From Candidatus Polarisedimenticolia bacterium (GTDB lineage Bacteria; Acidobacteriota; Polarisedimenticolia; JACPZX01; DASXTC01), in NCBI GenBank assembly GCA_035281445.1, contig DATEEA010000030.1, forward strand, positions 2,332 to 66,331: a stretch of DNA of 64,000 nt. The letters are read 5' to 3'. The first letter of the stretch is position 1. Every line of letters starts with the position of its first letter. Position numbers and translations under genes: made by a program. A model generated the notes under the pieces. That model saw only the letters and a program-made list of their open reading frames with translations. It searched no databases and had not been told where the DNA came from. Positions 1 through 54,449 of the stretch are shown here, piece by piece.

Positions 1-2024
1 AGGCTCGTTGTCGTCGCCGCGGCTTCAAGCCCTGCGTCATCGTCTGCGTCCATTGCAGCGATATCATCGGCAGAGCGAAGGAGCGCCGCGATCTCCTCCA
101 GGTGTCCTTCCTTCTGCGTAATGACAGCATCGAGGGGGCCGTAGTCGAGTGTCAGCGTAACGATTTGTCCCAAACTCAAGCCCGCTGCCTGGAGCGTGGT
201 CGCGTGCTCGGTTTCCAGCTCCGTAAGGCTCGCCACCTCGCGGGCAATGGCCTGCCGGAGTTGCCGTAGCTGCTCTACGGTGGTGCTGGTTTCGACCTGC
301 TCGATTTCACGCTGCGCGATCTGCTCGGACAGCTCGGCGATCTTTCGCGTGAGATCTTCGACCTGCGTGGTTTCCGCAGACGGCCCGGCCGTCTCCGCTT
401 CGGGATTCGGCTTTTCCTCCGGGCAGGTCTTGCCGTGCGCCTCGATATCCTCTTTCTTCAGCCTGAGCTTCTCTTCGAGTTCCTTGCGGTAGTCCTCGGT
501 GAGTTTCTTCTCGATGGCGACGACCTTCGCATTGGCCTGGTGAAGCTCCTGCTTCTTCTCGGCGATGTCCTTCTCGGCCTGCTGGGTCCGATACTTGATT
601 AGGTCGTCGAGATCAGACTTTCCGTGCTGGTCCTGCGGCTTAACATATCGGAAGATCACTTCGTTGAGTGTCGCCCGGAACTCGTCGTCCGCGATATTCG
701 CGCAAATCCGCTCCAGGTACTTTTGCGGCAGGTATTCGACCTTCTCGGGCAGATGCGTCGCGGTCTGCTCGTCAAGCGTTTTCTTATCAGGCTCGCCTTG
801 ATGCCAGTTCAGTGTAGCCTCGAAATGTTTCGCACATCCGGCCTTGAGGAATTTCTCCTTATTCAGAAACGAGAACAGCTCTTCGGGCCTTCCGCCCGCA
901 AGGCCCTTGGATATCTGGTTGTGGCTGTTGCCGAGCAGTCCGATTACATCCGTGACCGCGCTTTTCCCGCTGCCCTTGTTGCCGATGACCGCGACAAGCT
1001 CTTTGCCGAGGGCTATCCTCTCGTCGCAGAACCAGGTGCCGTGCTGTTCCTTGCGGTATCCGGCAATGCAGTCGAGTTGCAGTGATGCGATGTAGCGCGT
1101 CCCGTTCTGCCTGACGCGGCGCTCGGCCTCCGGCTCGGCTCCGATATGAACGCGGTTGGCCGGCTCGAAGACGATCTGCTTCAGACCTTCGTAGGTGAGA
1201 TCGGCCTTGATCCAGGTCGGCTCCAGCACGACGCCGTCCGCAGGAGTCGTGAAAACTTGCCCGAGTTTCGCATCGAGATCGGCAAGGGAGTGAGCATCGC
1301 AGCCAGAAAGCACGGGCTTGGGTTCCGTGTACTCTGACTTATCTTGGGCCCGCGAGCGGCTGAGGAACCACTCGACATTCTCGGCATTGCCGAAGAATGC
1401 GTCGCTGAACTTATCCAGCTCATCCGATAGCTCAGCCTTCCTCTTGACGCCCGGCTTCGCGCGAATGCCGTCATTGTTCGCCGCGGTGACAATCAGGACG
1501 TGGTCAAGGAGGTCGGCATCCCGTCCGTAGGTCTCGGTGAGAGCCTTCCGGATATACTCTCGAGTCGTCGTAGCCGATTCGAAATCGGCAGTCCGCGTGA
1601 GTTCGCTGGCCTTGACATCACGGTCCAAACGATCGGTTCTAGTGAGATTGAGAGCGCTGAGAAAGAACTTGATGCGGCTATCGCAATCGGGCTGAAAGGG
1701 GTTGAAGAGTAGGTGAACGTTGACCTCCTCTTCCGCCTTGTTAACGACGTAGTTGGTCCGCAACTCGACGTTGGGAAAGAACACCTTTGGGGAATCTCGA
1801 TACCGCTTCCGGTATTCGGCAACGGCAGTGAAGTAGCATTCGGCGGAGAAATAATCCGTGATGCCGAACGCCTGCACATCAGACTCATGCAGCCTTCGGC
1901 AATACGCATCCCACAATTCGGCGCCGTCCGGCGCGCGGAACTGGTTGTTGAGTTTCGTTCCAGGCGCGTGGAGGTGGAGATCCCACTTTCTCCACTCTGA
2001 GCCCCTAGGTGAGTTCGCAATCAT
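1..2024 (-). CDS. Large PHP-domain + P-loop (SMC/RecF/OLD-like) ATPase with coiled coil. The C-terminus runs off the window start. Ppl-like candidate defence protein.
   Basis: Own translation of the minus strand, in a frame absent from the track because there is no in-window stop. It starts MIANSPRGSEWRKWDLHLHAPGT, giving the PHP HxH motif. Further on is SGCDAHS, a PHP Asp-His motif. About 345 aa in comes LVAVIGNKGSGKSAVTD, a Walker A. That is followed by more than 250 aa of Glu/Lys/Leu-rich heptad-like sequence (coiled coil). The ATG is at ~2024 and the frame closes upstream at a TAG. GC is lower than the window background. Confidence 0.7.
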   Translation of the reverse strand, partial: MIANSPRGSEWRKWDLHLHAPGTKLNNQFRAPDGAELWDAYCRRLHESDVQAFGITDYFSAECYFTAVAEYRKRYRDSPKVFFPNVELRTNYVVNKAEEEVNVHLLFNPFQPDCDSRIKFFLSALNLTRTDRLDRDVKASELTRTADFESATTTREYIRKALTETYGRDADLLDHVLIVTAANNDGIRAKPGVKRKAELSDELDKFSDAFFGNAENVEWFLSRSRAQDKSEYTEPKPVLSGCDAHSLADLDAKLGQVFTTPADGVVLEPTWIKADLTYEGLKQIVFEPANRVHIGAEPEAERRVRQNGTRYIASLQLDCIAGYRKEQHGTWFCDERIALGKELVAVIGNKGSGKSAVTDVIGLLGNSHNQISKGLAGGRPEELFSFLNKEKFLKAGCAKHFEATLNWHQGEPDKKTLDEQTATHLPEKVEYLPQKYLERICANIADDEFRATLNEVIFRYVKPQDQHGKSDLDDLIKYRTQQAEKDIAEKKQELHQANAKVVAIEKKLTEDYRKELEEKLRLKKEDIEAHGKTCPEEKPNPEAETAGPSAETTQVEDLTRKIAELSEQIAQREIEQVETSTTVEQLRQLRQAIAREVASLTELETEHATTLQAAGLSLGQIVTLTLDYGPLDAVITQKEGHLEEIAALLRSADDIAAMDADDDAGLEAAATTTS

Positions 2025-2325
2025 CGCATTTCGCTTCCAGGCTGGATCCCATGACGCGTATTCCACGATTCTCTGTATCCGCCCGATGACCGCGGATCTT
2101 GACGGCTCCCCTGCAGTGCCGCTTGGCGGGGAAACACCAGGTGTTTGACAGGGGCTCACATGGCCCGCCGCAGGATTCTACCATTGTTCCGGAGGCACCG
2201 GACCGCTGAGACGTTGTGTCGCCGCCGTGCAGTGGGGCCTGAGGACTCTTCTCCGGCGTAAGATTCTCATGGAGGAGGGAAAACTGTGGTGGGTCGCGGA
2301 GTAGTAGCCGGAAACCTTTCCGAAG

Positions 2326-2367: not shown

Positions 2368-2739
2368 TCAGGAAGTGCGAAACGCTTCCTGGAAGCCGCG
2401 GTTGATTCGGGACAGGAGGTCGAAGGCGCTGCGCACGCTGCGGGTCCGGTGGGTCGCGTAGTGCGTCGCTGTGTTGTAGGCGTCGAAGATGTTCGAGAGC
2501 CCCTTCCTGGTCAGATGGTCAGTGAGTGTCCGGGATGCGAGGCTCGGAAGCCCTTCCAGCACGGGCTGAAGCGGGTGCCAGGTGCAGGACCGCTGCGTCC
2601 ATGTCCGATAGAGTTCGAGGATCGCATCGAAGCCCGTGAGGTACGACGCGAGCTGCTCGGCGACGCTCTCGATCGGGATCTCGCCGGCGTGGACGGACAT
2701 GAACCCGCCGGCGAACACGCCGCCTCCACCCACCGCCAA
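2368..2739 (-). CDS. Hypothetical protein (123 aa) immediately upstream of the PHP-ATPase gene.
   Basis: A track ORF of 123 aa with an alternative internal start MSVHAGE. It contains no Arg-rich shadow-frame signature and I recognise no family. The terminator hairpin sits directly downstream. Confidence 0.45.
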   Translation of the reverse strand: MAVGGGGVFAGGFMSVHAGEIPIESVAEQLASYLTGFDAILELYRTWTQRSCTWHPLQPVLEGLPSLASRTLTDHLTRKGLSNIFDAYNTATHYATHRTRSVRSAFDLLSRINRGFQEAFRTS

Positions 2740-2999
2740 GTTCGTGCAGACGAACCGGAACGCTCCGATGTGGACCGTCTAGTCCAATCGCCCAAATCGT
2801 CTCAAAAAGGCCAGCGGTTATCAAGAGTATCCCACCTCACATCCCTATCCCGAGACATGGCCTAGCCAGTCAACTTTGCCGTCGAGTCGTCGAGCTCCTC
2901 CGCTAGAATCCGAAGTTGGTCGTAAACCTCTCTCAGATGCGCGATTTCGGTTGCATTCATAGTCACATAAACCTCTAGCGCCCTTACCGGAAAATACAT

Positions 3000-4061: not shown

Positions 4062-4718
4062 ATGACGATCGCAAGTCGCTGGATCATCGGCTTGCGCGGC
4101 CCGGGGCTGGCCCTGGCCCTGCTGGCGCTGGCGGTTCCTGCCCATGCCACCACGTTGAAAAGGATGGACTTGTCCGAGCTGGTGCGCGGTGCGGACCGGG
4201 TGGTCCATGCCCGGGCGGCCGGCACCAGGGTCTACTGGGACCCCAGCGGCACCCAGATCTACACCGACACCCGCTTCGAGGTGGTGGAGGAGGCCAAGGG
4301 GCGCGGGCCCCGCACCCTCACCCTCACCACCCTGGGCGGGAGGATGGGAGAGGTGGTCATGTCGGTGGAGGGGACGCCGGCCTTCGAGCAGGGGAGCGAG
4401 GCGGTGCTGTTCACCGCCGCGGCGCCGGACGGAAGGCGCCATCTGGTGGGCTTTTCGCAGGGGGTGATGCGCGTCATCGAGGATTCGCGGACCGGGGACC
4501 GGTTCGCGGTCAGCGAGACCCCGGCGGGGGTCACGGTCATGGAGCGGACCGGGACCGGGCTGGCTCCCGTCAGGCCGCGCCGGCAGAGGGCGAGCCTGCC
4601 GCAGCTTCTCGATGAGATCCGCCGCATCGCGCAGGGCGAGCCCGCCGGCCCCAGGCTGCTGTCCCGGCCGCAGAAGGCCGCCGGGGCCGCGCCCGCTCCG
4701 CAGGAGGGGAGGCCATGA
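4062..4718 (+). CDS. Secreted hypothetical protein (~218 aa) co-transcribed with the downstream metalloprotease.
   Basis: There is an internal ATG with a GGAGG ribosome-binding site. The signal peptide is MTIASRWIIGLRGPGLALALLALAVPAHA. The stop overlaps the start of the next gene (ATGA). Confidence 0.55.
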   Translation: MTIASRWIIGLRGPGLALALLALAVPAHATTLKRMDLSELVRGADRVVHARAAGTRVYWDPSGTQIYTDTRFEVVEEAKGRGPRTLTLTTLGGRMGEVVMSVEGTPAFEQGSEAVLFTAAAPDGRRHLVGFSQGVMRVIEDSRTGDRFAVSETPAGVTVMERTGTGLAPVRPRRQRASLPQLLDEIRRIAQGEPAGPRLLSRPQKAAGAAPAPQEGRP

Positions 4719-7330
4719 GACTCCATCATCTGGCGGCGCTGGCCGGCCTGGCCGGCGCCCTGCTCCTGGCGGGCGGGCAGCCCCAGGCCACGGGCAACCT
4801 GGAGGTCATCACCCAAAGCGGCACCGCCATCGGCAACCGGGTGTGGCACGCCAACTCCATCCCTATCGTCTGGCAGTACAACGACCCCACCACCGTCGGC
4901 ACGTGCAGCTACAGCTCCACCAACGCCCCCGCGATGACGCTGCTGCCCGCCCTGCAGGCGGCCTACGACGCCTGGGAGGTGGACCCCGACTCGGCTCTGG
5001 ACTTCACCTACGGGGGGACCACCGCCACGCGCAACGTCGGAAACGACGGGGTCAACGTGGTGACCTTCTGCGACTCGGTCGTGCTGCAGTCCAACCAGGG
5101 GTTTCTCGCCAGCACCCCGTCCACGGCCCTCGCCTCCCAGATCACCGTGACGGCGGGGGGCGGCTGTCCCGCCGGGCAGGGGATCCTCGACGCCAACGGG
5201 CCGCAGCCTCCGGCCGGGTTCTGCTTCCCGGTGGGGACCTACCCGGCCGGCACGACCATCGACGCCGACATCCGGTTCAACACCTTCGGGACGTTCGAGC
5301 AGGCCAACTTCTCCACCAACAACACGATCGGCACCTCCGACGTGCAGGCGGTCATGACCCATGAAATCGGTCACTTCTTCGGCCTGTCGCACGATCCGAT
5401 CCCGCAGGCGGTCATGTTCCCGTTCGTGGACGACGAGCCGGCCAGCGACGGGATGGGGCAGAGGGTGCTCAAGCGGTCGGACCTGAGCACGGCGGGGCAC
5501 TTCTACCCCGCCGCCAGCTTCGGCGTCAACTTCGGCAGCATCACCGGGTTCATCTCGCTCGACGGGGTGGACGCCGACGGGGTCCACGTCGCGGCCATCG
5601 ACCCCTCCACCATGCTGGGGGTCTCCGGGCGCTTCGCCATCTCCCGGTTCGAGGACAGCCTGGCCCTGGGCCCGGACGGGCCCGACTTCGCGGCCAACGG
5701 CGCCGGATTCTACAGGATCGACGGGCTCCCCCCTGGCGACTACTACGTGTATGTCGAGTACTTCGACAACTCCGACTTCATCTCGGGGCGGCTGGTCAAC
5801 CGGTACAACACGACGGTGGGGAACTCCAACGTCTCCAACGGCAATTCGGGATCGACCGGCCAGGTCGGGAGCTGGCTGGGGTTCATACCGGCCCTGGCCG
5901 AGTTCCACAACGCCGGCGACTCGGGGCACGGCGGCAACGGCATCGATCCGGGGACGGCGCTGGACAACTCCGACGTGGCCACGCTGGTCCCGGTCACGGC
6001 GGGGACGGTGACCTCCAACGTCAACATCGCCATCAACATCGAGCCGGTCAACGGCCAGACGGCCGTCAACCGCCAGAACCCGACCACCCGCAACACGCTC
6101 CCCAACGATCTGCTCGGGACCAACGACATCATCACCGCCTTCCTGCTGGAGGAGGGAGACGACGACTGGTGGGCGATCCGCTTCCCGGCTTCCGCCCTGC
6201 CGCCGGTTCCCTTCAACGTGGCCGAGGGGCAGTGGATGAAGGCGGGGCTGAGCACCATGCCCATGGTCACCCGGCTGGCCTTCGCCGACCCCAACAGCCC
6301 CTCGAATCCGGCGCTCAACGACCCGGTGGTGGCCTCCGCCGGGCGGGTGCTGACCGGCGGCCCCGGCGGCACGCTGCCCGCGGGGGACTTCATCGACGTC
6401 CGGGACCAGTGGAACGTGACCGTGACGCAGGCCCAGGATGTCTGGATCCTCATCAACCAGCCGGAGTCCGACCCCAACATCACCTTCCTGACCGAGGGGT
6501 TCTTCGCCCTGGTGGCCCAGACCCAGGGGGGCGCCGCCCGCGTGAACAACACGCGCCTGACCATCAACGGTGGGGCGAGCTGGTCCACGTTCACCCAGGG
6601 GGATGTCTTCTACGACCTGATCCTGGAGGCCGACCCGCCGGTCATGATCACCGGCGCCTCTCCCGCCTCGATGAACGCCTTGCAGACGGCAGACGTGGAC
6701 ATCAACGGCCTGGGCTTCCAGATGGGGGCGGCGGTGGACTTCGGCCCGTTCGTGACGGTCAACAACGTCACTTTCATGAGCCCCCAGCAGCTCCGGGCCA
6801 ACATCACCGTGGCCGCGGTGCCGGGCACGGCCCCGGTGGCGGTGAACGTGAAGGTCACCAACCCGGACGTGGTCTTCCCCAACGTGGCCAGGGTCTTCAG
6901 CCTCGTCCCGGTCCAGGACACCGACCTCGACGGCACCCCGGACACCGAGGACTGCGCGCCGGGCGACTCTTCCATCCAGCACCCGGCGACGGAGGTGGCC
7001 AACCTGCTGGTGGCCGACCTGGGCGGCTCGACACAGCTCACCTGGGACAGCCAGGACATGGCCAGCGGCACGGCGACCGTGTATGACGTCGTGACCGGCA
7101 TCGCCGGCGACCTCAGGACCACACCGGGCTACGGGATGGCGCAGTGCGGGGCGGACAACCACGCCGACTCGCCGTTTGTGGACATGAACCCGGATCCGCC
7201 CCTGGACGGCATCCGCTACTGGCTGGTGAGGGCGTTCAACGGCTGCACGGCGGGCTCGGGGACGTACGGCGACAGCAACGTGGCGCCCGACCCCAGAGAC
7301 GCGCTCGACGCGGGAGTCCCCTGCCCTTAG
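4715..7330 (+). CDS. Secreted zinc metalloprotease of the metzincin/matrixin type (871 aa) with a large beta-rich C-terminal extension.
   Basis: There is an N-terminal signal peptide. HEIGHFFGLSHD matches the HExxHxxGxxH zinc-binding motif and AVMFP is a Met-turn. The C-terminus has a TSP3-like DTDLDGTPDTEDC motif and a Cys-rich tail. Confidence 0.85.
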   Translation: MRLHHLAALAGLAGALLLAGGQPQATGNLEVITQSGTAIGNRVWHANSIPIVWQYNDPTTVGTCSYSSTNAPAMTLLPALQAAYDAWEVDPDSALDFTYGGTTATRNVGNDGVNVVTFCDSVVLQSNQGFLASTPSTALASQITVTAGGGCPAGQGILDANGPQPPAGFCFPVGTYPAGTTIDADIRFNTFGTFEQANFSTNNTIGTSDVQAVMTHEIGHFFGLSHDPIPQAVMFPFVDDEPASDGMGQRVLKRSDLSTAGHFYPAASFGVNFGSITGFISLDGVDADGVHVAAIDPSTMLGVSGRFAISRFEDSLALGPDGPDFAANGAGFYRIDGLPPGDYYVYVEYFDNSDFISGRLVNRYNTTVGNSNVSNGNSGSTGQVGSWLGFIPALAEFHNAGDSGHGGNGIDPGTALDNSDVATLVPVTAGTVTSNVNIAINIEPVNGQTAVNRQNPTTRNTLPNDLLGTNDIITAFLLEEGDDDWWAIRFPASALPPVPFNVAEGQWMKAGLSTMPMVTRLAFADPNSPSNPALNDPVVASAGRVLTGGPGGTLPAGDFIDVRDQWNVTVTQAQDVWILINQPESDPNITFLTEGFFALVAQTQGGAARVNNTRLTINGGASWSTFTQGDVFYDLILEADPPVMITGASPASMNALQTADVDINGLGFQMGAAVDFGPFVTVNNVTFMSPQQLRANITVAAVPGTAPVAVNVKVTNPDVVFPNVARVFSLVPVQDTDLDGTPDTEDCAPGDSSIQHPATEVANLLVADLGGSTQLTWDSQDMASGTATVYDVVTGIAGDLRTTPGYGMAQCGADNHADSPFVDMNPDPPLDGIRYWLVRAFNGCTAGSGTYGDSNVAPDPRDALDAGVPCP

Positions 7331-48353: not shown

Positions 48354-49097
48354 ATGAGCCGTACCCGTCACGCCCGCACGTCGCACCGATTCCTCCCGGC
48401 CGCCCTGGTTGGATTTCTTGCGTCGCTCCCCTTGCTGCTGGGCGCTTCCGCCTCGGCCGATCCCTACGCCGGCTTCGATCCCGCCCTGCGCCGGGTGCTG
48501 CAGACCTTCGACGAGGCCCAGGCGAGGGTGCATTCGATCTCCGCGCGCTTCGTGGAAAGAAAAGAGATCGGTCTGCTCAAGAACGCCGTGGTCCAGAAGG
48601 GGCAGTTCTACCACACCAAGCCGGACAAGTTCCTCTGGGAGTACGTCTCGCCCGAGCCCAAGATGCTCCTGATGAACGGCAAGAAGCTGGTGGCCTACTA
48701 CCCGGTCCAGAAGCAGGCCGAGGAGATCCAGACCCGCCTGAGCCGGCGCTTGGTCAAGTACTTCGGTCTGGGACAGGTCTTCGCGGATCTTCAGGAGTAC
48801 TACCACCTGTCGCTGGAGGACGACCCCGGCCTGCCCGGCACCGACGTGGTGGTGATGCGTCCCCGCTCCAAGCGGCTCGAGAAGCGCCTGCTGGAGGTGC
48901 GTGTCTGGATCGACGAGCAGGTCAGGCAGGTGCGCCGCCTGGAGTACCGCGAGGCCGACGGAGACCGGACACTGTTCAACTTCGAGGACATCCAGGTCAA
49001 CCCGGACATCAGCCCGGCGCGCTACGAGATCGAGCTTCCCAACGACGTTCAGGTGAGCACGAACTTTTCAGGATTCTTCGCAGAGAAGGGACGTTGA
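48354..49097 (+). CDS. LolA-family outer-membrane lipoprotein carrier/sorting protein.
   Basis: An internal ATG precedes a signal peptide (...[18 protein letters not shown]). ...[36 protein letters not shown] is LolA-like. Confidence 0.65.
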
Positions 49098-50035
49098 AGC
49101 ACGTTGGACTGGTGCTGCATCCGGATTACCTGGCCCACCAGACCGGTGTGTCCCACCCCGAGAGGTCCGAGCGCCTGCGCGCGGTGATGGACAGGATCGA
49201 GCGCTCGGGGCTCAAGCAGGACCTGGCGCCCATCGAGCCCCGGCCGGCCGAGCCTGCATGGCTGGAGGAGATCCACTCCCCCGCCTACATCCGCCGCGTG
49301 GAGGAGTACTGCCGCGGGGGGCGGGCCATCATCGACTCGATGGACACCGGGATCTCGCCTCATTCCTTCGACGTGGCGCGGCTGGCCGCCGGGGGCGCGC
49401 TCTCGGCCGCCGACGCGGTGATGGAGGGGCGCGTGGCGTCGGCGTTCTGCGCCGTGCGTCCGCCGGGGCATCACGCCCTCAAGGAAGTGGCCATGGGCTT
49501 CTGCCTCTTCAACAACGTGGCGGTGGCCGCCCGGTATCTCCAGAAGCGGCACGGGCTGAAGCGCGTCATGATCCTCGACTGGGACGTCCACCATGGCAAC
49601 GGCACCCAGGACGCGTTCTACGAGGATCCCTCGGTCTTCTTCTTCAGCATCCACCAGTACCCCTTCTATCCAGGGACCGGCGCCCGCGGCGAGACCGGGA
49701 TCGGGCCCGGGGAGGGGTACACCCTCAACGCGCCGATGGAGGCGGGCGGCCGCGACGACGACTACCTGAGGGTGTTCGAGGAGGTCCTCGCCCCCAGAGT
49801 GCTCGCGTTCAGGCCGGAGTTCATCCTCATCTCCGCCGGCTTCGACGCGCACCGCGACGATCCTCTGGGCGGGATGCGTCTCACCGAGGAGGGTTACGCC
49901 AGGATGACCGACTTGGTGCGCTCCTGGGCCGGGGATCACAGCCGCGGACGCATCGTCTCCCTGCTGGAGGGGGGCTACGATCTCGAGGCGCTGGCCCGCT
50001 CGGTGGAAGCGCACGCCGGGCGCCTGCTCCAGTAG
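49094..50035 (+). CDS. Histone-deacetylase-family (AcuC/HDAC-like) deacetylase.
   Basis: ...RPPGHHA... ...[11 protein letters not shown]... ...SAGFDAH... are HDAC zinc/catalytic motifs. The TTG start overlaps the LolA stop. Confidence 0.85.
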
Positions 50036-50073
50036 CCGCCTCGCGGCGGGGTGTGGTAGGCTGGCCGCCGCGT

Positions 50074-50364
50074 ATGGACGCACACCCGCCCTCCGACCCC
50101 TCCCTCAAGCGCGAGATCAAGGAGCTGATCGTCACCCAGCTCCGGCTCAAGGACGTCACCCCGGACGGCATCCGGGACGACGAGTCGCTCGTGCAAGGGT
50201 CGCTCAGCCTGGACTCCATCGATTTCCTGGAGCTCACCGTGGCCATGGAGCGCCGCTACGGCGTCAAGATAAGCGACGCCGACGAGGTGCAGGCCATCTT
50301 CGCCTCCGTGGACTCCATCGCGCGCCACATCGCCAGGCACCGGGCCCAGTCGGCCCGTGCCTGA
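50074..50364 (+). CDS. Acyl carrier protein.
   Basis: LSLDSIDFLELTVAMERRYGVKI contains the phosphopantetheine-attachment Ser in an LDS context. ~96 aa. Confidence 0.8.
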   Translation: MDAHPPSDPSLKREIKELIVTQLRLKDVTPDGIRDDESLVQGSLSLDSIDFLELTVAMERRYGVKISDADEVQAIFASVDSIARHIARHRAQSARA

Positions 50365-50794
50365 CCGGGGCGCCCCCGGCGGCCAGGGAGACCCTCTCGC
50401 CCGGCTCCCCCACACGGGCGCGGCGCGGCTCCCCTCGAGGGTCCTCAGGCTCGACCCGGGCCGGGCCGTCACCGCCGAGCGTTGTCTGGCGGCCGGCGAT
50501 CCCTGCCTCAACGGGGATGGCTTCCTTCCCTCGGTGCTGGTCGTGGAGCTGATGGCTCAGGCCGGCGGCCTGCTGATGGAGCAGGAGCCCGGCGGCTCCG
50601 CCGGCGTCCTGGCCGGCGTGCGCCGCCTGCACCTCCATGCCGCCCCCGGAGCAGGAGACACGGTGACCGTGGAGTGCCGGCTGGAGCGCCGGCTCGGGGA
50701 GCTCTACCTCCTTTCGTGCGACGCCCGGAGCGGTACCCGGGCGCTGGCGCACGGCCGGATCCATCTGCGCAGAACGAGGCGGGCGCGGGCATGA
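50357..50794 (+). CDS. Hotdog-fold protein (FabZ/FabA-like dehydratase family, possibly noncanonical).
   Basis: ...GDGFLPSVLVVELMAQAGGLL... has a hotdog pattern, but with Asp where FabZ has the catalytic His. The start is uncertain. Confidence 0.45.
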   Translation: MPDRGAPGGQGDPLARLPHTGAARLPSRVLRLDPGRAVTAERCLAAGDPCLNGDGFLPSVLVVELMAQAGGLLMEQEPGGSAGVLAGVRRLHLHAAPGAGDTVTVECRLERRLGELYLLSCDARSGTRALAHGRIHLRRTRRARA

Positions 50795-51462
50795 TCGGGC
50801 TGGTCATCCCCGCCTACAACGCCGAGGCGACCATCGGCCGGGCGGTGGCCGGCGGCCGGCGACACGTCGACGCCGCCCTGGTGGTGGACGACGGTTCGGG
50901 GGACGGCACCGGGAAGCGGGCTGTGGAAGCGGGGGCCGAGGTGGTGCGCCATCCGCGGAACCTGGGAAAGGGTGCGGCCCTGCGGACAGGGTTCGCCCGC
51001 ATGCGGGCCATCGGGGCCGGCGCGGTCATCACCATGGACGCCGACTTGCAGCACGATCCGGAGGATATCCCGCGGTTCATCCAGGCGCACCGCCAGCGCG
51101 GTGCCGATCTGATCGTCGGCTCGCGGGCCTCCCACTTCGGGTTGATGAGCCCCGGGCGCCGCACGGGCAACCGCTTCTCATGCGGCGCGCTGCGCTTCTT
51201 CACCGGCCTGGAGCTTCCCGACTCGCAGTCCGGGTTCCGGCTCTATGGACGCGATTTCCTGGCCGGCCTGGTCCTGCGGCGCGACGCCTACGACGCCGAG
51301 ATGGAGGCGCTGCTGGTGGCGGCCCGGGAGAGGCGACGCATCGAGGCGCTCCCGATCGCCGTGCCGGCGGCCGACGGCAAGACCACCAGCTTCTACAGGC
51401 CCTGGCTCGACACCTACCGCATCTGCCGCACCGTCATCCTGTTCAGCGTCTGCGAGCTCTAG
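50791..51462 (+). CDS. Family 2 glycosyltransferase.
   Basis: MIGLVIPAYNAEATIGRAV...LVVDDGSGDGT is a GT-A DxD motif. Confidence 0.8.
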   Translation: MIGLVIPAYNAEATIGRAVAGGRRHVDAALVVDDGSGDGTGKRAVEAGAEVVRHPRNLGKGAALRTGFARMRAIGAGAVITMDADLQHDPEDIPRFIQAHRQRGADLIVGSRASHFGLMSPGRRTGNRFSCGALRFFTGLELPDSQSGFRLYGRDFLAGLVLRRDAYDAEMEALLVAARERRRIEALPIAVPAADGKTTSFYRPWLDTYRICRTVILFSVCEL

Positions 51463-51621
51463 CGCACCGCGCCCGTGGCGGCCCGGGACGCCTGCTGGCA
51501 CTCTTCAAGGCCGGCGGCCCTTCCGGCGGGCGCCGACCTCGACGGCCGACGGCTCGACCACTTCCAGCAGGGCCACCACGTCCTGCCAGATATTATGGCA
51601 AGTTAGCGGCCATGCTTAGCG

Positions 51622-51649
51622 TTGACATAAGTATAACTCGATGTATATC
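51622..51649 (+). promoter_or_regulatory. Sigma70-like promoter for the Fic gene.
   Basis: TTGACA at 51622-51627 and TATATC at 51644-51649 are separated by a 16-nt spacer. An AAGAGG ribosome-binding site lies 7 nt before the ATG at 51708. Confidence 0.45.
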
Positions 51650-51707
51650 AAGATGTTGTGATGCCATGCAGCGTGCCAAAGATAGTGTCAACTAAGAGGT
51701 TATCCGC

Positions 51708-52898
51708 ATGGACTGGGCAGCCTTCAGTTTTGAGTATCGTCTGGAGTATCCGGGCGAAGAAGTCGTCTCCAACCTGATTTCCATCGAAGCGTACAAGGAG
51801 GCTGCGCAGAATCTCGTCCTTGCGCCGGACTGGCAAGAGCAGCTTGATAGGCTGAATCGAGTTCGAGCGGTCTACGGCACAACCGCGCTGGAGGGAAACC
51901 CATTGTCCGAGGCTGAGGTAGCTCGGCAGATGGATCTGTTGTCCCGGCCAGGGCAAGGTGGCAACAACGTGAGCAGGGAGCAACGACAGATCAGAAACGC
52001 TGGCCTGGCCCAAGTATGGGTCAAGACGCGCTTCAAGCAGAACAGCCCGCCGCTAACACTGGATGACATCCTGGCGATTCATAAGGCGATCACCGAGCAG
52101 TCGGACGAAAGGGATAATGTCCCTGGAAGACTTCGCGAGCACGAGGTTCATGTAGGCAGTGTTGATGCTGGCGGCATTCACAGGGGTGCACCTGCACAAA
52201 GACTTCAGGAGCTGATGGCCGGCTTTGTCGAGTTCGTGAACTCCAGGGGGCTCTTGGCCATCCATCCCGTGCTCCGGGCCCTGTTGTCGCATTTCTTTCT
52301 TGTCACAATTCATCCTTTCGGAGATGGCAACGGAAGAGTCTCGCGACTTGTAGAAGCGGGGATACTCTTTCAGGGAGGCTATAACGTCCATGGTTTCTAT
52401 GGTCTTTCAAGCTATTTCTATCGCCACGAAAGAGAATACAAAATATCGCTTCAGGCGTGCAGAAATAGCCAGCCTTTCACCGTAACACCCTTCGTCGTGT
52501 TTGGACTGAAGGGATTCGCAAGCGAACTGAAGGGGATAAACAACTTCATCAAGGCAAAACTGAACAGGGTTGTCTACAGGGCTATGTTAGTCCGTGCCTT
52601 CAACAGCAGAATCGGAACCAGGAGGCGCCTGCTAAACCAGCGTGAGTACAATTTGCTTGATTTCCTGCTTACGAAAACTGAACCGACAGACCCGTTCTCG
52701 GACGAACATGCAAGAGAAATATCTGTTGATGAACTCAAGGAAGATCCCTACATCAAGGCAGTGTACGGAAAGGTGACGCCAAGAACCTTCCTCAGAGAGC
52801 TAGGTAGGCTTGCTCACTTCGGCTTCATTACCTTCGCGTTGGATGATGGCGGTAAAGCGATAGTGCGGATAGACTTTGAAGCAATCCGTAAGCACTAG
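51708..52898 (+). CDS. fic: Fic/Doc-family protein (AMPylase-type) with an N-terminal inhibitory-helix motif.
   Basis: HPFGDGNGRVSR matches the Fic motif HPFx(D/E)GNGRxxR. TTALEG, N-terminal to it, matches the (S/T)xxxE(G/N) inhibitory motif. 396 aa. The gene is markedly low GC. Confidence 0.9.
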   Translation: MDWAAFSFEYRLEYPGEEVVSNLISIEAYKEAAQNLVLAPDWQEQLDRLNRVRAVYGTTALEGNPLSEAEVARQMDLLSRPGQGGNNVSREQRQIRNAGLAQVWVKTRFKQNSPPLTLDDILAIHKAITEQSDERDNVPGRLREHEVHVGSVDAGGIHRGAPAQRLQELMAGFVEFVNSRGLLAIHPVLRALLSHFFLVTIHPFGDGNGRVSRLVEAGILFQGGYNVHGFYGLSSYFYRHEREYKISLQACRNSQPFTVTPFVVFGLKGFASELKGINNFIKAKLNRVVYRAMLVRAFNSRIGTRRRLLNQREYNLLDFLLTKTEPTDPFSDEHAREISVDELKEDPYIKAVYGKVTPRTFLRELGRLAHFGFITFALDDGGKAIVRIDFEAIRKH

Positions 52899-53012
52899 CC
52901 GCGCCAGCGCGCCTTAGCCGGACCCGGCGCTGCCTCGACTGGATGCGGCGGGCCGACAGCGTGTAGGATCCTCCCTTCGCATCACCACGTCGTCGCCAGA
53001 AGGGGGGATCCG

Positions 53013-54449
53013 ATGATGTCCCGCGCCACCCGCTCGCTCCTGCTGCCCGCGCTCCTGCTCGTCTTGCCGGCCACCTCCCAGGCCGCGCAGGAGGCGCTCA
53101 AGAAGAAGGCCATCGCTTCGATCGACGCCCGCCGCCCCGAGCTGATCGAGCTGTCGGACAAGGTCTGGGAGTTCGCCGAGACGGCGCTCAAGGAGACCCG
53201 GAGCGCGGCTCTGCTGGCCGACTACGCCGAGAGGCAGGGGTTCACCGTCGACCGGGCGGTGGCCGGGATGCCCACGGCCTTCGTCGCCGTGTACGGGCAG
53301 GGGGAGCCGGTGATCGGGATCCTGGGTGAGTACGATGCCCTGCCCGGGCTCAGCCAGAAAGCCCAACCGGCGAAGGAAGCGCGCCTGGTGGGAGCCCCGG
53401 GTCACGGCTGCGGCCACAACATGTTCGGTGCCGCCAGCCTGGGGGCGGCCATCGCCGTCAAGGAGCTGATCGAGTCGGGGGCGATCAAGGGGACGATCAA
53501 GTTCTTCGGGACCCCGGCCGAGGAGGCGGTGGGAGGCAAGGTGTACATGGCGCGCGAGGGGCTGTTCCAGGGGATCGACGTGGTGGTCGCCTGGCATCCC
53601 GACACCAAGACCCGCGCCGATCTCACCAGCGGTCAGGCGCTGGTCGATCTGTCGGTGGAGTTCAAAGGGAAGTCCGCGCACGCCGCCTTCGATCCCTGGA
53701 ACGGCCGCAGCGCCGTGGACGCCATGGAGCTCTTCACGCACGGCATCAACATGCTGCGGGAGCACGTGAGGCCCTCCGTGCGGATGCACTACGTCATCCA
53801 GAAGGGAGGGGACGTCCCCAACGTCATCCCGGAGGAGGCGCGCCTCTGGCTCTGGGTTCGCGACTGGGAGCGCCGCGGCGTGGAGTCCGTCCTGGAGCGG
53901 GTGCGGGACATCGCGGCGGGTGCCGGGATGATGGCCGGAGCGGAAGCCAGGATCACCATCCAGGGAGGCGACTACGAGCTCCTCATCAACCAGAGAGGCG
54001 CGCGCCTGATACACGAGAACCTCTCCTGGCTCGGCCCGATCCAGTACACCGACGAGGAGCAGCAGTTCGCCCGGTCGCTGCAGACGGCGGCGGGGGTCGA
54101 ACCCGCCGGAGTCGACGGCTCGGTGCATCCGCTGGAAGGACAGGAGCCCGAAGGGGGCTCCACGGACGTCGGGGACGTGAGCTGGCTGGTCCCCACGCTG
54201 CACATGAGCGTGGTGACCGCCCCGAGCAACGTTCCCTGGCACGCCTGGCCGGTGGTGGCGAGCGGCGGCATGTCGATCGGCCACAAGGGGATGACCCACG
54301 CCGCCAAGGCCATGGCCTCGATCATGGTCGAGCTGTTCCAGGAGGCGGGCGTGCGCCAGGAGATCCGCTCGGAGTTCCAGGACAAGACCCGCGGCTTCCT
54401 CTACAAGCCGTTCATCCCCGACGGGCCTCCGGTCCTGCCCGGGGAGTGA
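53013..54449 (+). CDS. M20-family amidohydrolase (AbgB/aminobenzoyl-glutamate utilisation-like), secreted.
   Basis: The signal peptide is MMSRATRSLLLPALLLVLPATSQA. M20 metal-binding motifs are ...GHGCGHN... ...GTPAEE... Confidence 0.85.
   Translation: MMSRATRSLLLPALLLVLPATSQAAQEALKKKAIASIDARRPELIELSDKVWEFAETALKETRSAALLADYAERQGFTVDRAVAGMPTAFVAVYGQGEPVIGILGEYDALPGLSQKAQPAKEARLVGAPGHGCGHNMFGAASLGAAIAVKELIESGAIKGTIKFFGTPAEEAVGGKVYMAREGLFQGIDVVVAWHPDTKTRADLTSGQALVDLSVEFKGKSAHAAFDPWNGRSAVDAMELFTHGINMLREHVRPSVRMHYVIQKGGDVPNVIPEEARLWLWVRDWERRGVESVLERVRDIAAGAGMMAGAEARITIQGGDYELLINQRGARLIHENLSWLGPIQYTDEEQQFARSLQTAAGVEPAGVDGSVHPLEGQEPEGGSTDVGDVSWLVPTLHMSVVTAPSNVPWHAWPVVASGGMSIGHKGMTHAAKAMASIMVELFQEAGVRQEIRSEFQDKTRGFLYKPFIPDGPPVLPGE

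Follow-up and report, generated by a model that had tools for sequence, protein, structure and literature searches.

A class II Fic protein with a C-terminal winged helix, most likely derived from an IS1-like transposon, and its candidate repeat operator in a Candidatus Polarisedimenticolia lineage

Introduction

What is a solitary, low-GC fic gene doing between a glycosyltransferase gene and a peptidase gene of a soil acidobacterium of a Candidatus Polarisedimenticolia lineage, how might it be controlled, and by what route did it arrive? The gene lies in a 64-kb stretch of DNA, all of which was analysed and which we call the window. It had previously been predicted, from the sequence alone, to be a self-inhibited Fic gene with its own promoter and ribosome-binding site and a possible C-terminal winged helix-turn-helix (wHTH), acquired horizontally as a single-gene cassette, with a function left open. 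Fic-wHTH proteins abound: by the count of the SoFic preprint, InterPro has over 1,800 with this domain organization. Their physiology, which includes AMPylation of EF-Tu, promoter binding and phage defence, is only now being worked out.

Results

Motifs, base composition and fold of the Fic protein

On exact translation, the catalytic Fic motif is intact (HPFGDGNGRVSR, aa 202–213, nt 52311–52346) and invariant across the clade of homologues described below, and the ORF matches the Pfam Fic model PF02661 at 61.4 bits (E=1.5e-16) against a cutoff of 24. The predicted inhibitory motif TTALEG (T58-T-A-L-E62-G63; aa 58–63, nt 51879–51896) is present upstream of it, at the end of helix 40–61 in the AF2 model; it aligns with the inhibitory helix TVAIEGN of human FICD, and TTA[LI]EGN is conserved in all Fic clades compared. 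With (S/T)xxxE(G/N) on the same chain and N-terminal to the Fic core, the window protein is, by its motifs, a class II-type Fic. A class I FicTA toxin–antitoxin pair was rejected, as no conserved small ORF adjoins fic in the window and the inhibitory motif lies inside Fic itself. A 27-aa ORF (51612–51695) was likewise rejected as an antitoxin or leader peptide, because it runs across the promoter and repeats and lacks conservation at other loci; downstream of fic, an AS1-like or small basic ORF is absent from the window.

The base composition of the gene sets it apart from its surroundings, as had been predicted. Fic has a GC content of 0.526 and a GC3 of 0.599, compared with 0.714/0.920 for the family-2 glycosyltransferase gene (GT2), 0.693/0.929 for the M20 peptidase gene and 0.694/0.917 for the HDAC gene, and no other 1.2-kb stretch of the 64-kb window is as poor in GC as its region, which falls about 4 sd under the mean of 0.682 (sd 0.039). 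All of the clade-invariant positions (at least 130) are kept in the window ORF. The predicted ribosome-binding site, AAGAGG, stands 8 nt before the ATG, and the non-coding flanks, estimated at about 240 and 110 bp, measure 245 bp upstream and 114 bp downstream. No intrinsic terminator was found 3′ of fic, and no Rfam model matched the flanks of the gene even at E≤1.

The protein is laid out as N-terminal helices bearing TTALEG, the Fic core, a linker helix (aa 260–299) and a C-terminal winged helix. The AF2 model (pLDDT 88.4, pTM 0.81) places the helices of this last domain at aa 311–323, 340–352 and 358–370 and a beta-hairpin wing at 374–378/384–388, and Foldseek aligned the full-length model (388–411 columns) to the Fic-wHTH crystal structures 7cb8, 8cil, 7xux, 4rgl and 3zcn/3eqx, which bears out the predicted wHTH. 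Identity to SoFic, CccR and CbFic2 in the structural alignments is only 15–20%. Pfam gave no match to the isolated C-terminal 106 aa, and the assignment of the C-terminal domain rests on its fold. By its predicted fold, the window protein shares the architecture of SoFic, CccR and CbFic2, in which a class II Fic ends in a winged helix. The helix at aa 358–370, in which R359, T360, R363, E364 and R367 are clade-invariant, is its putative recognition helix.

Table 1. Coordinates of the features discussed, in window positions
Feature	Position	Strand	Basis or details
GT2 (family-2 glycosyltransferase), left flank	50791..51462	+	Pfam Glycos_transf_2 E=1.7e-24; orthologue comparison
GC-rich (0.77) non-coding segment	51463..51583	.	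between GT2 stop and Fic control region
Distal repeat array	51584..51616	+	TGCCAGATA (51584), TGGCAAGTT (51596), GGCCATGCT (51608); 12-nt period; cross-locus alignment, motif map
Sigma70-like promoter	51622..51649	+	-35 TTGACA (51622-27), 16-nt spacer, -10 TATATC (51644-49); sequence and positional conservation
Proximal repeat array	51662..51694	+	TGCCATGCA (51662), TGCCAAAGA (51674), TGTCAACTA (51686); exact 12-nt spacing
Shine-Dalgarno AAGAGG	51694..51699	+	sequence
fic gene	51708..52898	+	396 aa, ATG start, no internal stops
Winged-helix domain, aa ~300-396	52605..52895	+	AF2, Foldseek, invariant columns
Host DNA right of insert	52938..52969	+	alignment with L089 sequence
Secreted M20 peptidase, right flank	53013..54449	+	Pfam Peptidase_M20, M20_dimer; synteny

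Insertion at the 3′ end of a glycosyltransferase gene

The window carries a run of genes, SurA-SurA-Hfq-LolA-HDAC-ACP-ApeP-GT2-[Fic]-M20, all on the + strand, and fic interrupts it, as predicted, directly after GT2, the last gene of the HDAC-ACP-ApeP-GT2 run. The original prediction had proposed a search for the empty site in related genomes, and this site was found in the Polarisedimenticolia MAGs L089 and L090, in which GT2 and M20 lie 63 bp apart without fic. Their neighbourhood is collinear with the window over 11 genes apart from fic (orthologues 59–77% identical in amino acid sequence), the window M20 is 72% identical to the gene directly after their GT2, and a third relative, L091, likewise has no fic after GT2. 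These genomes were found through homologues of GT2; synteny examined through M20 homologues of GTDB species representatives (80 loci, ≤70% identity) was uninformative, as none had GT2 adjoining M20. Since two relatives have the same gene order but lack fic, the gene was inserted horizontally.

The window GT2 ends in ...FSVCEL*, 7 codons short of its L089 orthologue (...CELWKVRRTG*), and ACTGGATG (52938–45), to the right of fic, matches the displaced original GT2 end (L089: ACTGGATGA). At an equal 14-nt distance, CGTGTAGGAT (52960–69) is common to the window and the L089/L090 spacer. As the GT2-tail relic and the shared spacer word lie further right, the right junction of the insert falls between 52899 and about 52937. 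Around the window insert, target-site duplications and inverted repeats were represented only by short, chance-level matches. The insertion between GT2 and M20 was seen in three independent assemblies of the population from which the window comes.

The upstream flank is split into a proximal, AT-rich 117 bp (GC 0.43) and a distal 128 bp of GC 0.77. The GC-rich segment (51463–51583) is missing from the 63-bp GT2–M20 spacer of the relatives, and showed no similarity to transposon ends or other loci. Two origins were considered for the GC-rich 128 bp and rejected: as a duplicated GT2 3′ end it gave a local alignment score of 17 against a null of 12.4 ± 2.4 (p ~0.07), and as a transposase remnant it was without signal in tblastn and blastn.

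On sequence comparison, the insert is foreign DNA of about 1.45 kb at the very 3′ end of GT2 in this lineage. The claim of horizontal acquisition thus stands, on the empty site in two related MAGs and the GT2-tail relic downstream of the insert. Of the two findings that had been named as refuting the original prediction as a whole, a gene of host-like GC at this locus in all relatives and a broken His/Asn motif, neither was made.

A cross-phylum Fic clade and its IS1-like transposon

The window Fic belongs to a tight, cross-phylum soil clade (56–69% identity), and its nearest homologues come from other classes and phyla at 64–69% identity. Mean column identity is 72% across phyla, which is unusually high for a defence gene. 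In every genome checked, fic lies 9–16 GC points under its host, which argues for frequent transfer. About half of the clade loci consist of a solo fic with intact ORF, promoter and repeat arrays. The homologues L002–L005 lie in islands rich in toxin–antitoxin or defence-type genes (PIN, HepT/Polbeta, Uma2, transposases); in the window and in L095/L096, fic is found among housekeeping genes. No relative of the window Fic was found in viral contigs, and phage and plasmid records held only 26–28% identical Fic-wHTH genes and no member of the window clade.

In other genomes, the fic cassette lies inside a transposon of 2.6–4.1 kb with an IS1-like transposase, terminal inverted repeats (IRs) that begin GGTAGTG and 8-bp target duplications. 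Its layout is IR, transposase (− strand), divergent control region, fic (+ strand), small basic ORF (− strand), IR. In L098, transposase and fic lie between terminal IRs that match exactly over 18 nt (GGTAGTGGGTCAGTTTGA), and analogous IRs are found in L110 (8-bp duplication GAAAATTT), L168 and L159. The relatives' elements resemble IS1-family insertion sequences in their IS1-matching transposase, in terminal IRs starting GGnnnTG and in the 8-bp target duplication, but the single-ORF DDE transposase matches IS1-family models at only 50–59 bits, under the 100-bit IS1 cutoff. Among IS1-family elements with passenger genes, we take the ISMhu11-like group in ISfinder to be the closest known kind; our literature search found no description of a Fic passenger on an IS1-family element.

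The window copy consists of fic and its control region only; transposase, small ORF and both IRs are gone. The best tblastn match to the transposase in the window (E=0.2) lies at an unrelated place, and the IR consensus from the relatives has no match in the window with ≤2 mismatches. Having lost the transposase and both IRs, the copy is immobile and differs from IS1-family insertion sequences, and its descent from the transposon is therefore read from clade membership only. It is most likely a derivative of an IS1-like transposon, not a member. Whilst the acquisition of a cassette was correctly foreseen, what was called a single gene is most likely the stripped-down passenger of such an element.

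Promoter and repeat arrays

The near-consensus promoter that had been predicted lies inside a conserved repeat array region, and its position is kept at about 15 homologous loci, with TTGACA-N16-TATATC in L114 as in the window, TTGACA-N17-TATTAT in L098 and TTGATG-N17-TATAAT in L096. In the window, the -35 box is perfect and the -10 box lacks the final T; because this box ends in C, a consensus promoter scanner run on the window did not call the site, a negative that we set aside given the conservation across homologous loci. This positional conservation supports the promoter better than the match in a single sequence.

Throughout the clade, the promoter has an array of TGTCAAATA direct repeats on either side, spaced by exactly 12 nt, in the fixed order distal array, promoter, proximal array, ATG. 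At 19 non-redundant clade loci, the upstream regions held 85 motif matches on the + strand in 3.85 kb, a density of 22 per kb, compared with 0.35 per kb outside them and with six matches on the opposite strand, and 40 neighbouring pairs stood exactly 12 nt apart, against none elsewhere and about none in 1000 shuffles. Although the same loci served both to derive the motif and to count it, this choice has no bearing on the controls by strand, spacing and shuffling.

In the window, the proximal array, a putative operator between the -10 box and the ribosome-binding site, has PWM scores of 8.5, 10.6 and 12.5, and the distal array scores of 9.4, 1.1 and -2.9 (family mean 12.8, sd 3.1). The distal array is thus decayed relative to the relatives, only its first copy still scoring as a site, and four of the ten best + strand PWM matches in the 64-kb window belong to one or other array. 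As the distal array has largely decayed and most window copies read TGCCA, not TGTCA, regulation in the window may be weakened.

The arrays persist at loci without a transposase. The transposases of L159 and L098 share 64% identity, yet L159 has a Fic of 27% identity and, at 12-nt spacing, the repeat word GACATAA, and the putative recognition helix differs in step with the repeat word (RTFxREL versus (K/R)T(L/M)xRD). In these sequences, the repeat word tracks the Fic clade, not the transposase. By this comparison, and by analogy with known Fic-wHTH proteins, the TGTCAAATA arrays are probably an autoregulatory operator for the winged helix.

Discussion

Comparison with characterized Fic proteins

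SoFic of Shewanella oneidensis (SO_4266/MloA; PDB 3EQX, 3ZCN) shares with the window Fic a class II, N-terminal inhibitory Glu helix, the motif HxFx(D/E)GNGRxxR and a C-terminal winged helix, and each is encoded by a solitary gene that is preceded by AT-rich DNA. SoFic binds to the AT-rich 100 bp in front of its own start codon, and it AMPylates EF-Tu (bioRxiv 10.64898/2026.07.09.737422), switch I being the target shown; it is also a single-gene anti-phage system (bioRxiv 10.1101/2022.05.11.491447); its E. coli homologue, EcSofic, is toxic on expression in E. coli (PMC12249575). The two proteins are, however, only 15–16% identical in structural alignment, SoFic is without a defined binding motif whereas the window clade has a conserved direct-repeat array of 12-bp period, and the AS1-like downstream gene is absent from the window.

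The structure 7XUX, one of the fold matches, is presumably CccR of Yersinia pseudotuberculosis, to judge from its release date. CccR is likewise a class II Fic (S59ARIEG) with a C-terminal HTH, and it represses its own promoter via this HTH from sites around the -35 and -10 boxes (PMC9755527). Its operator is an inverted repeat, AGATAATCAT-N26-ATGATAATCT (PMC9755527), whereas the window has two arrays of same-strand repeats with a 12-nt period. CccR is also a T6SS-secreted effector, whereas no secretion genes stand among the immediate neighbours of the window Fic, to which it is 17–20% identical. That the repeats are direct, with a 12-bp period, and not inverted as in CccR counts against their proposed reading by a winged-helix dimer.

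Of the proteins with solved structures, FICD/HYPE, a metazoan class II Fic, matches the window Fic best by sequence (E=2e-18 over aa 53–226), and its inhibitory helix and Fic core superpose on the window model at about 3 Å rmsd. The regulatory Glu of FICD is a switch between AMPylation and deAMPylation. Unlike the window Fic, FICD has TPR and transmembrane parts and an ER chaperone target, and is without a winged helix. The best whole-model superposition is with CbFic2 of Coxiella burnetii (8CIL; TM 0.65–0.74, 18–19% identity). CbFic2 is described as a Fic protein with a DNA-binding domain, whose (de)AMPylation is stimulated by DNA binding and which targets host histone H3 (PMC10628234), whereas the window clade implies sequence-specific sites.

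The function of the window Fic can still only be inferred, but is less open than originally stated, because the closely analogous SoFic and CccR are already characterized. With 15–20% identity, and 34.6 bits against a cutoff of 550 for the NCBIfam SoFic equivalog NF046030, by which the protein falls short of SoFic orthology, the transfer of an EF-Tu target or of a defence function is weak.

A proposed mode of action and its alternatives

The reading that we favour, at a probability of about 60%, is that of a self-inhibited class II Fic-wHTH protein, a transposon-derived orphan that is autoregulated via its own repeat operator. On the comparison of loci, fic is transcribed from its own sigma70-type promoter. 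The winged helix would bind the 12-bp-period repeats on either side of it, as the analogy with CccR and SoFic and the covariation of motif and protein suggest, and Fic would thereby repress itself, so that a potentially toxic enzyme is kept scarce. Going by the motifs, Glu62 of the TTALEG helix would block productive ATP binding, leaving the enzyme off, or a deAMPylase, by default. AMPylation of a highly conserved cellular target, and with it growth arrest, may then be released by a trigger, for instance stress, infection by a phage, or a shift in the oligomeric state or DNA binding of the protein.

Anti-phage defence is one possible biological role under this explanation. As the main functional alternative, put forward tentatively, the cassette would be kept because phage infection triggers AMPylation of an essential host protein and is thereby aborted, with autoregulation serving solely to adjust the dose. 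In PADLOC, the SoFic model is indeed the best match (PDLC03963, E=1.3e-41, covering profile positions 40–303 of 361 and aa 30–321 of 396), the architecture is SoFic-like, the homologues L002–L005 sit in toxin–antitoxin or defence-type islands, and both the defence activity and the toxicity of SoFic are published (10.1101/2022.05.11.491447; PMC12249575). Nevertheless, the protein lies far under the equivalog cutoff, the window and L095/L096 copies are surrounded by housekeeping genes rather than a defence island, the clade is far more conserved than typical defence genes and was not found in phage or plasmid collections, and the small antitoxin-like downstream ORF is absent from the window.

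Alternatively, Fic-wHTH could have evolved as a selfish module of the transposon that acts as an addiction factor and represses the divergent transposase promoter; the window copy would then be a leftover without host benefit. The repeat arrays occupy precisely the interval that separates the divergent transposase and fic genes, a few tens of nucleotides away from the start codon of the transposase, Fic clades that are only 25–28% identical share the tnp-fic-small ORF layout, and the GC deficit of fic, implying frequent transfer, fits as well. We nonetheless consider this unlikely: the intactness of the solo fic loci argues for selection on fic itself after loss of the transposase, the window ORF keeps every clade-invariant residue, and the insertion is present in three independent assemblies of this population. 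A related possibility, which we put forward with some doubt, is that the Fic-wHTH proteins of several divergent clades are dedicated passengers of one IS1-like family, reading 12-bp-period iterons in the divergent control region to govern their own and the transposase promoters, and that the window copy has been domesticated as an orphan in which only enzyme and operator persist.

The TGTCAAATA arrays might instead serve the transposase HTH or a host factor, or act at the RNA level as a 5′ UTR element, which we regard as improbable. The transposase does have an N-terminal HTH, the proximal array would be transcribed, and TGTCAA reads on the opposite strand as TTGACA, the -35 consensus; yet the arrays are kept where no transposase is present, the motif shifts with the Fic clade while the transposase stays similar, the distal array is upstream of the promoter and hence outside the fic mRNA, and no Rfam model was matched. 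With hosts in several phyla, one host factor common to all is unlikely.

It is very improbable that fic was present ancestrally at the GT2/M20 locus and that the compared relatives lost it by deletion, with functional constraint behind its low GC: although the empty-site genomes are all fairly distant (59–77% amino acid identity) and the collections searched held no closer relatives, GC3 is 0.60 against 0.92 in every neighbour, GT2 is cut by 7 codons with its displaced tail still recognizable right of fic, the nearest Fic homologues come from other classes and phyla at equal 64–69% identity, clade members lie within transposons with target duplications, and L091 also lacks fic after GT2.

Implications

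Under the favoured reading of an autoregulated, transposon-derived orphan, the locus provides a Fic transcription factor with a candidate operator that is sharply defined, TGTCAAATA with a 12-bp period in two arrays around a near-consensus promoter, together with a natural covariation of repeat word and recognition helix across clades. The IS1-like transposon of the relatives, with exact IRs and target duplications, provides a concrete vehicle for cross-phylum spread and for the presence of an orphan fic among housekeeping genes. For annotation, it follows that a larger mobile element can be the source of what now looks like a ‘solitary Fic’. If the Fic-wHTH proteins are indeed dedicated passengers, transposon activity would be coupled to an AMPylation-based toxin or defence switch, and the family would represent a new class of cargo-regulated transposon, with a new direct-repeat operator logic for Fic transcription factors.

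Results

Taken alone, fic is the gene of an ordinary-looking 'Fic family protein'. On exact translation, its catalytic motif is canonical, fitting HxFx(D/E)GNGRxxR, and its inhibitory motif fits (S/T)xxxE(G/N), so that both the intact catalytic motif and the class II-type (putatively self-inhibited) reading of the original prediction were borne out. The protein scored 61 bits against the Pfam Fic cutoff of 24, and its top sequence matches among solved structures were FICD/HYPE (E=2e-18), in which the inhibitory helix TVAIEGN aligns with TTALEG of the window protein.

The anticipated AT-richness of fic relative to its neighbours was confirmed, and its extent is large. The GC content of the ORF is 0.526 and its GC3 0.599, versus GC3 values of 0.92-0.93 for the GT2 (family-2 glycosyltransferase), M20 peptidase and HDAC genes, and the ORF represents the lowest-GC 1.2 kb stretch in the 64 kb window, approximately 4 sd under the mean. 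The non-coding flanks, previously put at about 240 and 110 bp, measured 245 bp upstream and 114 bp downstream; the upstream flank is AT-rich only in the gene-proximal 117 bp (GC 0.43), and its GT2-side 128 bp has a GC content of 0.77. The proposed AAGAGG ribosome-binding site was located 8 nt 5′ of the ATG. The promoter-like site, described as near-consensus, reads TTGACA-N16-TATATC; a consensus promoter scanner made no call on it, the last T of the −10 box being absent, but the sequence comparisons across the clade described below support it despite this rejection.

Positions 1-2800 rank second-lowest in GC content within the window (0.57-0.62). They contain a large ORF that extends past the start of the window (725 aa or more, GC3 0.72), with a weak match to AAA_15 and PARIS AriA-like ATPases (Pfam E=1.7e-06; PADLOC AriA E=2.9e-08). 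Its N-terminal WDLHLH motif looks PHP-domain-like. Together with an adjoining DUF932 fragment, this ORF seems to belong to a further mobile or defence island.

The neighbourhood of fic reads SurA-SurA-Hfq-LolA-HDAC-ACP-ApeP-like-GT2-[Fic]-M20; the next gene, BNR/sortilin-like, is on the other strand. The same order, including fic, was present in three independent assemblies of the source population, and an annotated protein identical to the window Fic was found in a MAG of Candidatus Polarisedimenticolia (Acidobacteriota). An M20-based search of species representatives was uninformative for the fic site, and the predicted empty site was reached via GT2 homologues in two related Polarisedimenticolia MAGs, L089 and L090, which were not close to the source but had no closer counterparts in the collections searched. 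Both share the 11-gene order, with orthologues of 59-77% amino acid identity, and in both fic is absent and the GT2-M20 gap is only 63 bp. In a third relative (L091), which also lacks fic, a radical-SAM gene follows GT2.

The window GT2 ends in ...FSVCEL*, and that of L089 runs on to ...CELWKVRRTG*. To the right of fic, ACTGGATG is followed exactly 14 nt beyond by CGTGTAGGAT, a pair that matches, in both sequence and spacing, the region of the GT2 stop and the spacer in L089, and therefore indicates an insertion of approximately 1.45 kb within the final codons of GT2. Given the codon usage, the clipped GT2 and a clade that is mobile, such an insertion is far more likely than a deletion elsewhere. 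With the empty site and the GC3 contrast, these features uphold the interpretation of fic as a horizontally acquired gene, foreign to this genome. The gene is intact.

Two further observations concern this locus. CGTGTAGGAT is conserved approximately 45 bp upstream of the M20 start, amid otherwise diverged intergenic DNA, and may be the −10 region of an M20 promoter or a regulatory site. The LolA-to-GT2 operon (LolA, HDAC-like deacetylase, ACP, ApeP-like dehydratase and GT2), kept in the Polarisedimenticolia relatives L089-L093, looks similar to part of a cluster for the biosynthesis and export of aryl polyenes or lipids.

Coordinates of features in the window and in compared loci
Feature	Locus	Position	Strand	Description
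fic ORF	window	51708-52898	+	396 aa, ATG start
Catalytic motif	window Fic	aa 202-213		HPFGDGNGRVSR
Inhibitory motif	window Fic			T58-T-A-L-E62-G63
Distal repeat	window	51584		PWM 9.4
Proximal repeats	window	51662, 51674, 51686		PWM 8.5, 10.6, 12.5 (family mean 12.8)
ACTGGATG	window	52938-45
CGTGTAGGAT	window	52960-52969
CGTGTAGGAT	L089	7706-7715
LolA-to-GT2 operon	window	49094-51462
Large ORF	window	3-2177	-
DUF932 fragment	window	2371-2778	-
IS1-like element	L098	1958-5184		3.2 kb; exact 18-nt termini GGTAGTGGGTCAGTTTGA at 1958-1975 and 5167-5184
IS1-like element	L110	2000-4924		termini GGCACTGGTTCAGTTTGA at 2000-2017 and 4907-4924
IS1-like element	L168	1770-4345		2.6 kb; termini GGTAGTGTCTCAGTTT(C/G)A
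IS1-like element	L159	325-4433		4.1 kb; termini GGTAGTGGGTCAATTTGA; one extra gene
Basic ORF	L098	4202-4447	-
Basic ORF	L102	3149-3421	-
Basic ORF	L110	4212-4448	-
Basic ORF	L159	4119-4385	-
Basic ORF	L168	~4062-4262	-
Facing IRs	L105	3867-3884, 3938-3955	+, -	~70 bp apart
Solo fic	L001	4467-5717	-

Hundreds of homologues (393-405 aa) share 60-69% identity with the window Fic, in Pyrinomonadaceae, Blastocatellia, Vicinamibacteria-like Acidobacteria, Rokubacteria and metagenome contigs. In a scan of metagenome contigs, the next Fic genes beyond this group were at most 41% identical, and this drop defines a discrete, strongly constrained clade, with a mean column identity of 72% and more than 130 invariant positions over the full length, including the C-terminus. 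A confident AlphaFold2 model built from the clade alignment (pLDDT 88.4, pTM 0.81) has helices at its N-terminus, then the Fic core, and a linker helix of 40 residues leading to a helix-helix-helix-hairpin at the C-terminus. Foldseek aligned the whole model (388-411 columns) with the Fic proteins of M. marinum (7cb8) and Coxiella (CbFic2, 8cil), 7xux, 4rgl and SoFic (3zcn/3eqx); the Fic core alone superposed on FICD at approximately 3 Å. The C-terminal winged helix that had been suspected is thus supported by the predicted fold. The PADLOC SoFic model matched the window protein (E=1.3e-41), and the NCBIfam SoFic equivalog gave 34.6 against 550 bits, far under its cutoff. Taken with the modelled fold, these results mean that the window Fic shares the architecture of SoFic, CccR and CbFic2 and is orthologous to none of them.

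Across all hosts examined, the gene of this clade is solitary, lies 9-16 GC points under its surroundings and has a very AT-rich region of 100-200 bp just upstream. Alignment of these upstream regions, mapped in 21 loci, revealed a fixed layout: a distal cluster of two to four copies of TGTCAAATA, a sigma70-like promoter (TTGACA, N16-18, TATAAT-like), and a proximal cluster of two or three copies finishing at or just 5′ of the start codon. Every copy lies on the coding strand, at a spacing of exactly 12 nt. The 3.85 kb upstream of fic in 19 non-redundant loci contained 85 motif matches on the + strand (22 per kb), versus six on the opposite strand and a density of 0.35 per kb over the other 353 kb; 40 neighbouring pairs were spaced at exactly 12 nt upstream of fic, and none elsewhere. 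In 1000 shuffles there were 4.7±2.1 matches and essentially zero 12-nt pairs. In the position weight matrix (PWM), G2, C4, A5 and A9 are nearly invariant, C4 and A5 by the search rule and G2 and A9 freely. The window retains the proximal array, and one distal copy is still site-like; the majority of its copies read TGCCA, not TGTCA, as expected from host GC pressure. A PWM scan found no comparable array elsewhere in the 64 kb window, and Rfam gave no match in the fic flanks.

In four loci of the clade (L098, L102, L110 and L114), a divergent gene of 274-306 aa lies upstream of fic and encodes a transposase with an N-terminal HTH and a DDE domain, sub-threshold against IS1-family models (50-59 versus 100 bits). 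Frameshifted copies of it occur in L002-L005 and L109, and fragments in L101, L106 and L139; the same transposase also precedes distant Fic clades in L159, L168, L148 and L160. Members of the IS1 family have GGnnnTG tips and 8-9 bp duplications, and include a passenger-carrying ISMhu11-like subgroup. A search restricted to DNA outside the transposase and fic genes found terminal inverted repeats (IRs) around both genes in L098, L110, L168 and L159, the L110 element being bordered on both sides by GAAAATTT, an 8 bp target duplication; single-end relics remain in L002, L095 and L102. By their sequence organization, the four are therefore genuine, complete IS1-like transposons with a Fic-winged-helix passenger, a cargo of which our literature search found no description. 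Within these elements the Fic clades are only 25-28% identical and the transposases 40-64%, which suggests repeated cargo capture or fast cargo divergence.

Elements of both Fic clades also conserve a basic ORF of 78-90 aa, convergent with fic, with the motif ...NPAAVALGxLGGxKGGKARA...RW or ...KNPAAVALGRLGGLKGGKARA..L(T/S)xExRxEIAxKAAxxRW. It had no Pfam or NCBIfam match, and could be an AS1-like modulator of Fic or a transposon accessory protein. As no transposase, small basic ORF or IR was found in the window, its copy is either a stripped-down orphan or arrived otherwise, for example by recombination.

Elsewhere, L105 contains a solo fic and, 1.6 kb downstream of it, two facing IS1-like IRs that may represent either a collapsed element or a MITE-like derivative. 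The solo fic of L001 (Pyrinomonadaceae) adjoins an unrelated DDE_Tnp_1/SWIM transposase within a polysaccharide-synthesis cluster, and is another cassette landing in a cell-envelope biosynthesis locus, like that of the window.

Discussion

What binds the repeats? A common host factor is unlikely because the hosts span phyla, and the arrays keep their exact spacing where fic is the sole cassette gene. In the second Fic clade (L159, L168 and L160), only 25-28% identical to ours, the control region has repeats of the same 12-nt period with another word, GACATAA or GACAA; the transposases of L159 and L098 are 64% identical, as alike as those of our clade among themselves. The putative recognition helix, invariant in our clade (R359, T360, F361, R363, E364, L365 and R367), reads (K/R)T(L/M)xRD in the second. 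Arrays without a transposase, multi-phylum hosts and the parallel changes of word and helix suggest Fic's own winged helix as the putative binder. By analogy, the C-terminal HTH of CccR represses its own promoter via AGATAATCAT-N26-ATGATAATCT (PMC9755527), and the SoFic dimer binds specifically to an AT-rich stretch, the 100 bp that precede its own start codon (bioRxiv 10.64898/2026.07.09.737422). The CccR site is an inverted repeat, whereas the window clade has direct repeats in two arrays.

We infer a model in which Fic would repress its own promoter through the repeats, Glu62 would hold the enzyme inactive or in a deAMPylase mode, and a trigger would release AMPylation of a conserved target, leading to growth arrest. 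SoFic targets switch I of EF-Tu, with dimerization-dependent activity (bioRxiv 10.64898/2026.07.09.737422), and its E. coli homologue EcSofic is toxic and counteracted by a 47 aa downstream gene (PMC12249575). Selection on fic itself is argued for by its unusually high conservation, its position among housekeeping genes in the window, L095 and L096, and the many surviving solo copies. The beneficiary may be the transposon, through addiction or transposition control, or the host, through anti-phage defence like that of SoFic, a single-gene system (bioRxiv 10.1101/2022.05.11.491447); the TA-rich islands around L002-L005 fit a defence or a selfish context.

It is the sharply defined, putative operator architecture and the link to IS1-like passenger transposons that raise this fic above the routine. 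The candidate architecture differs from the sole characterized case, CccR, and both it and the transposon link are directly testable.
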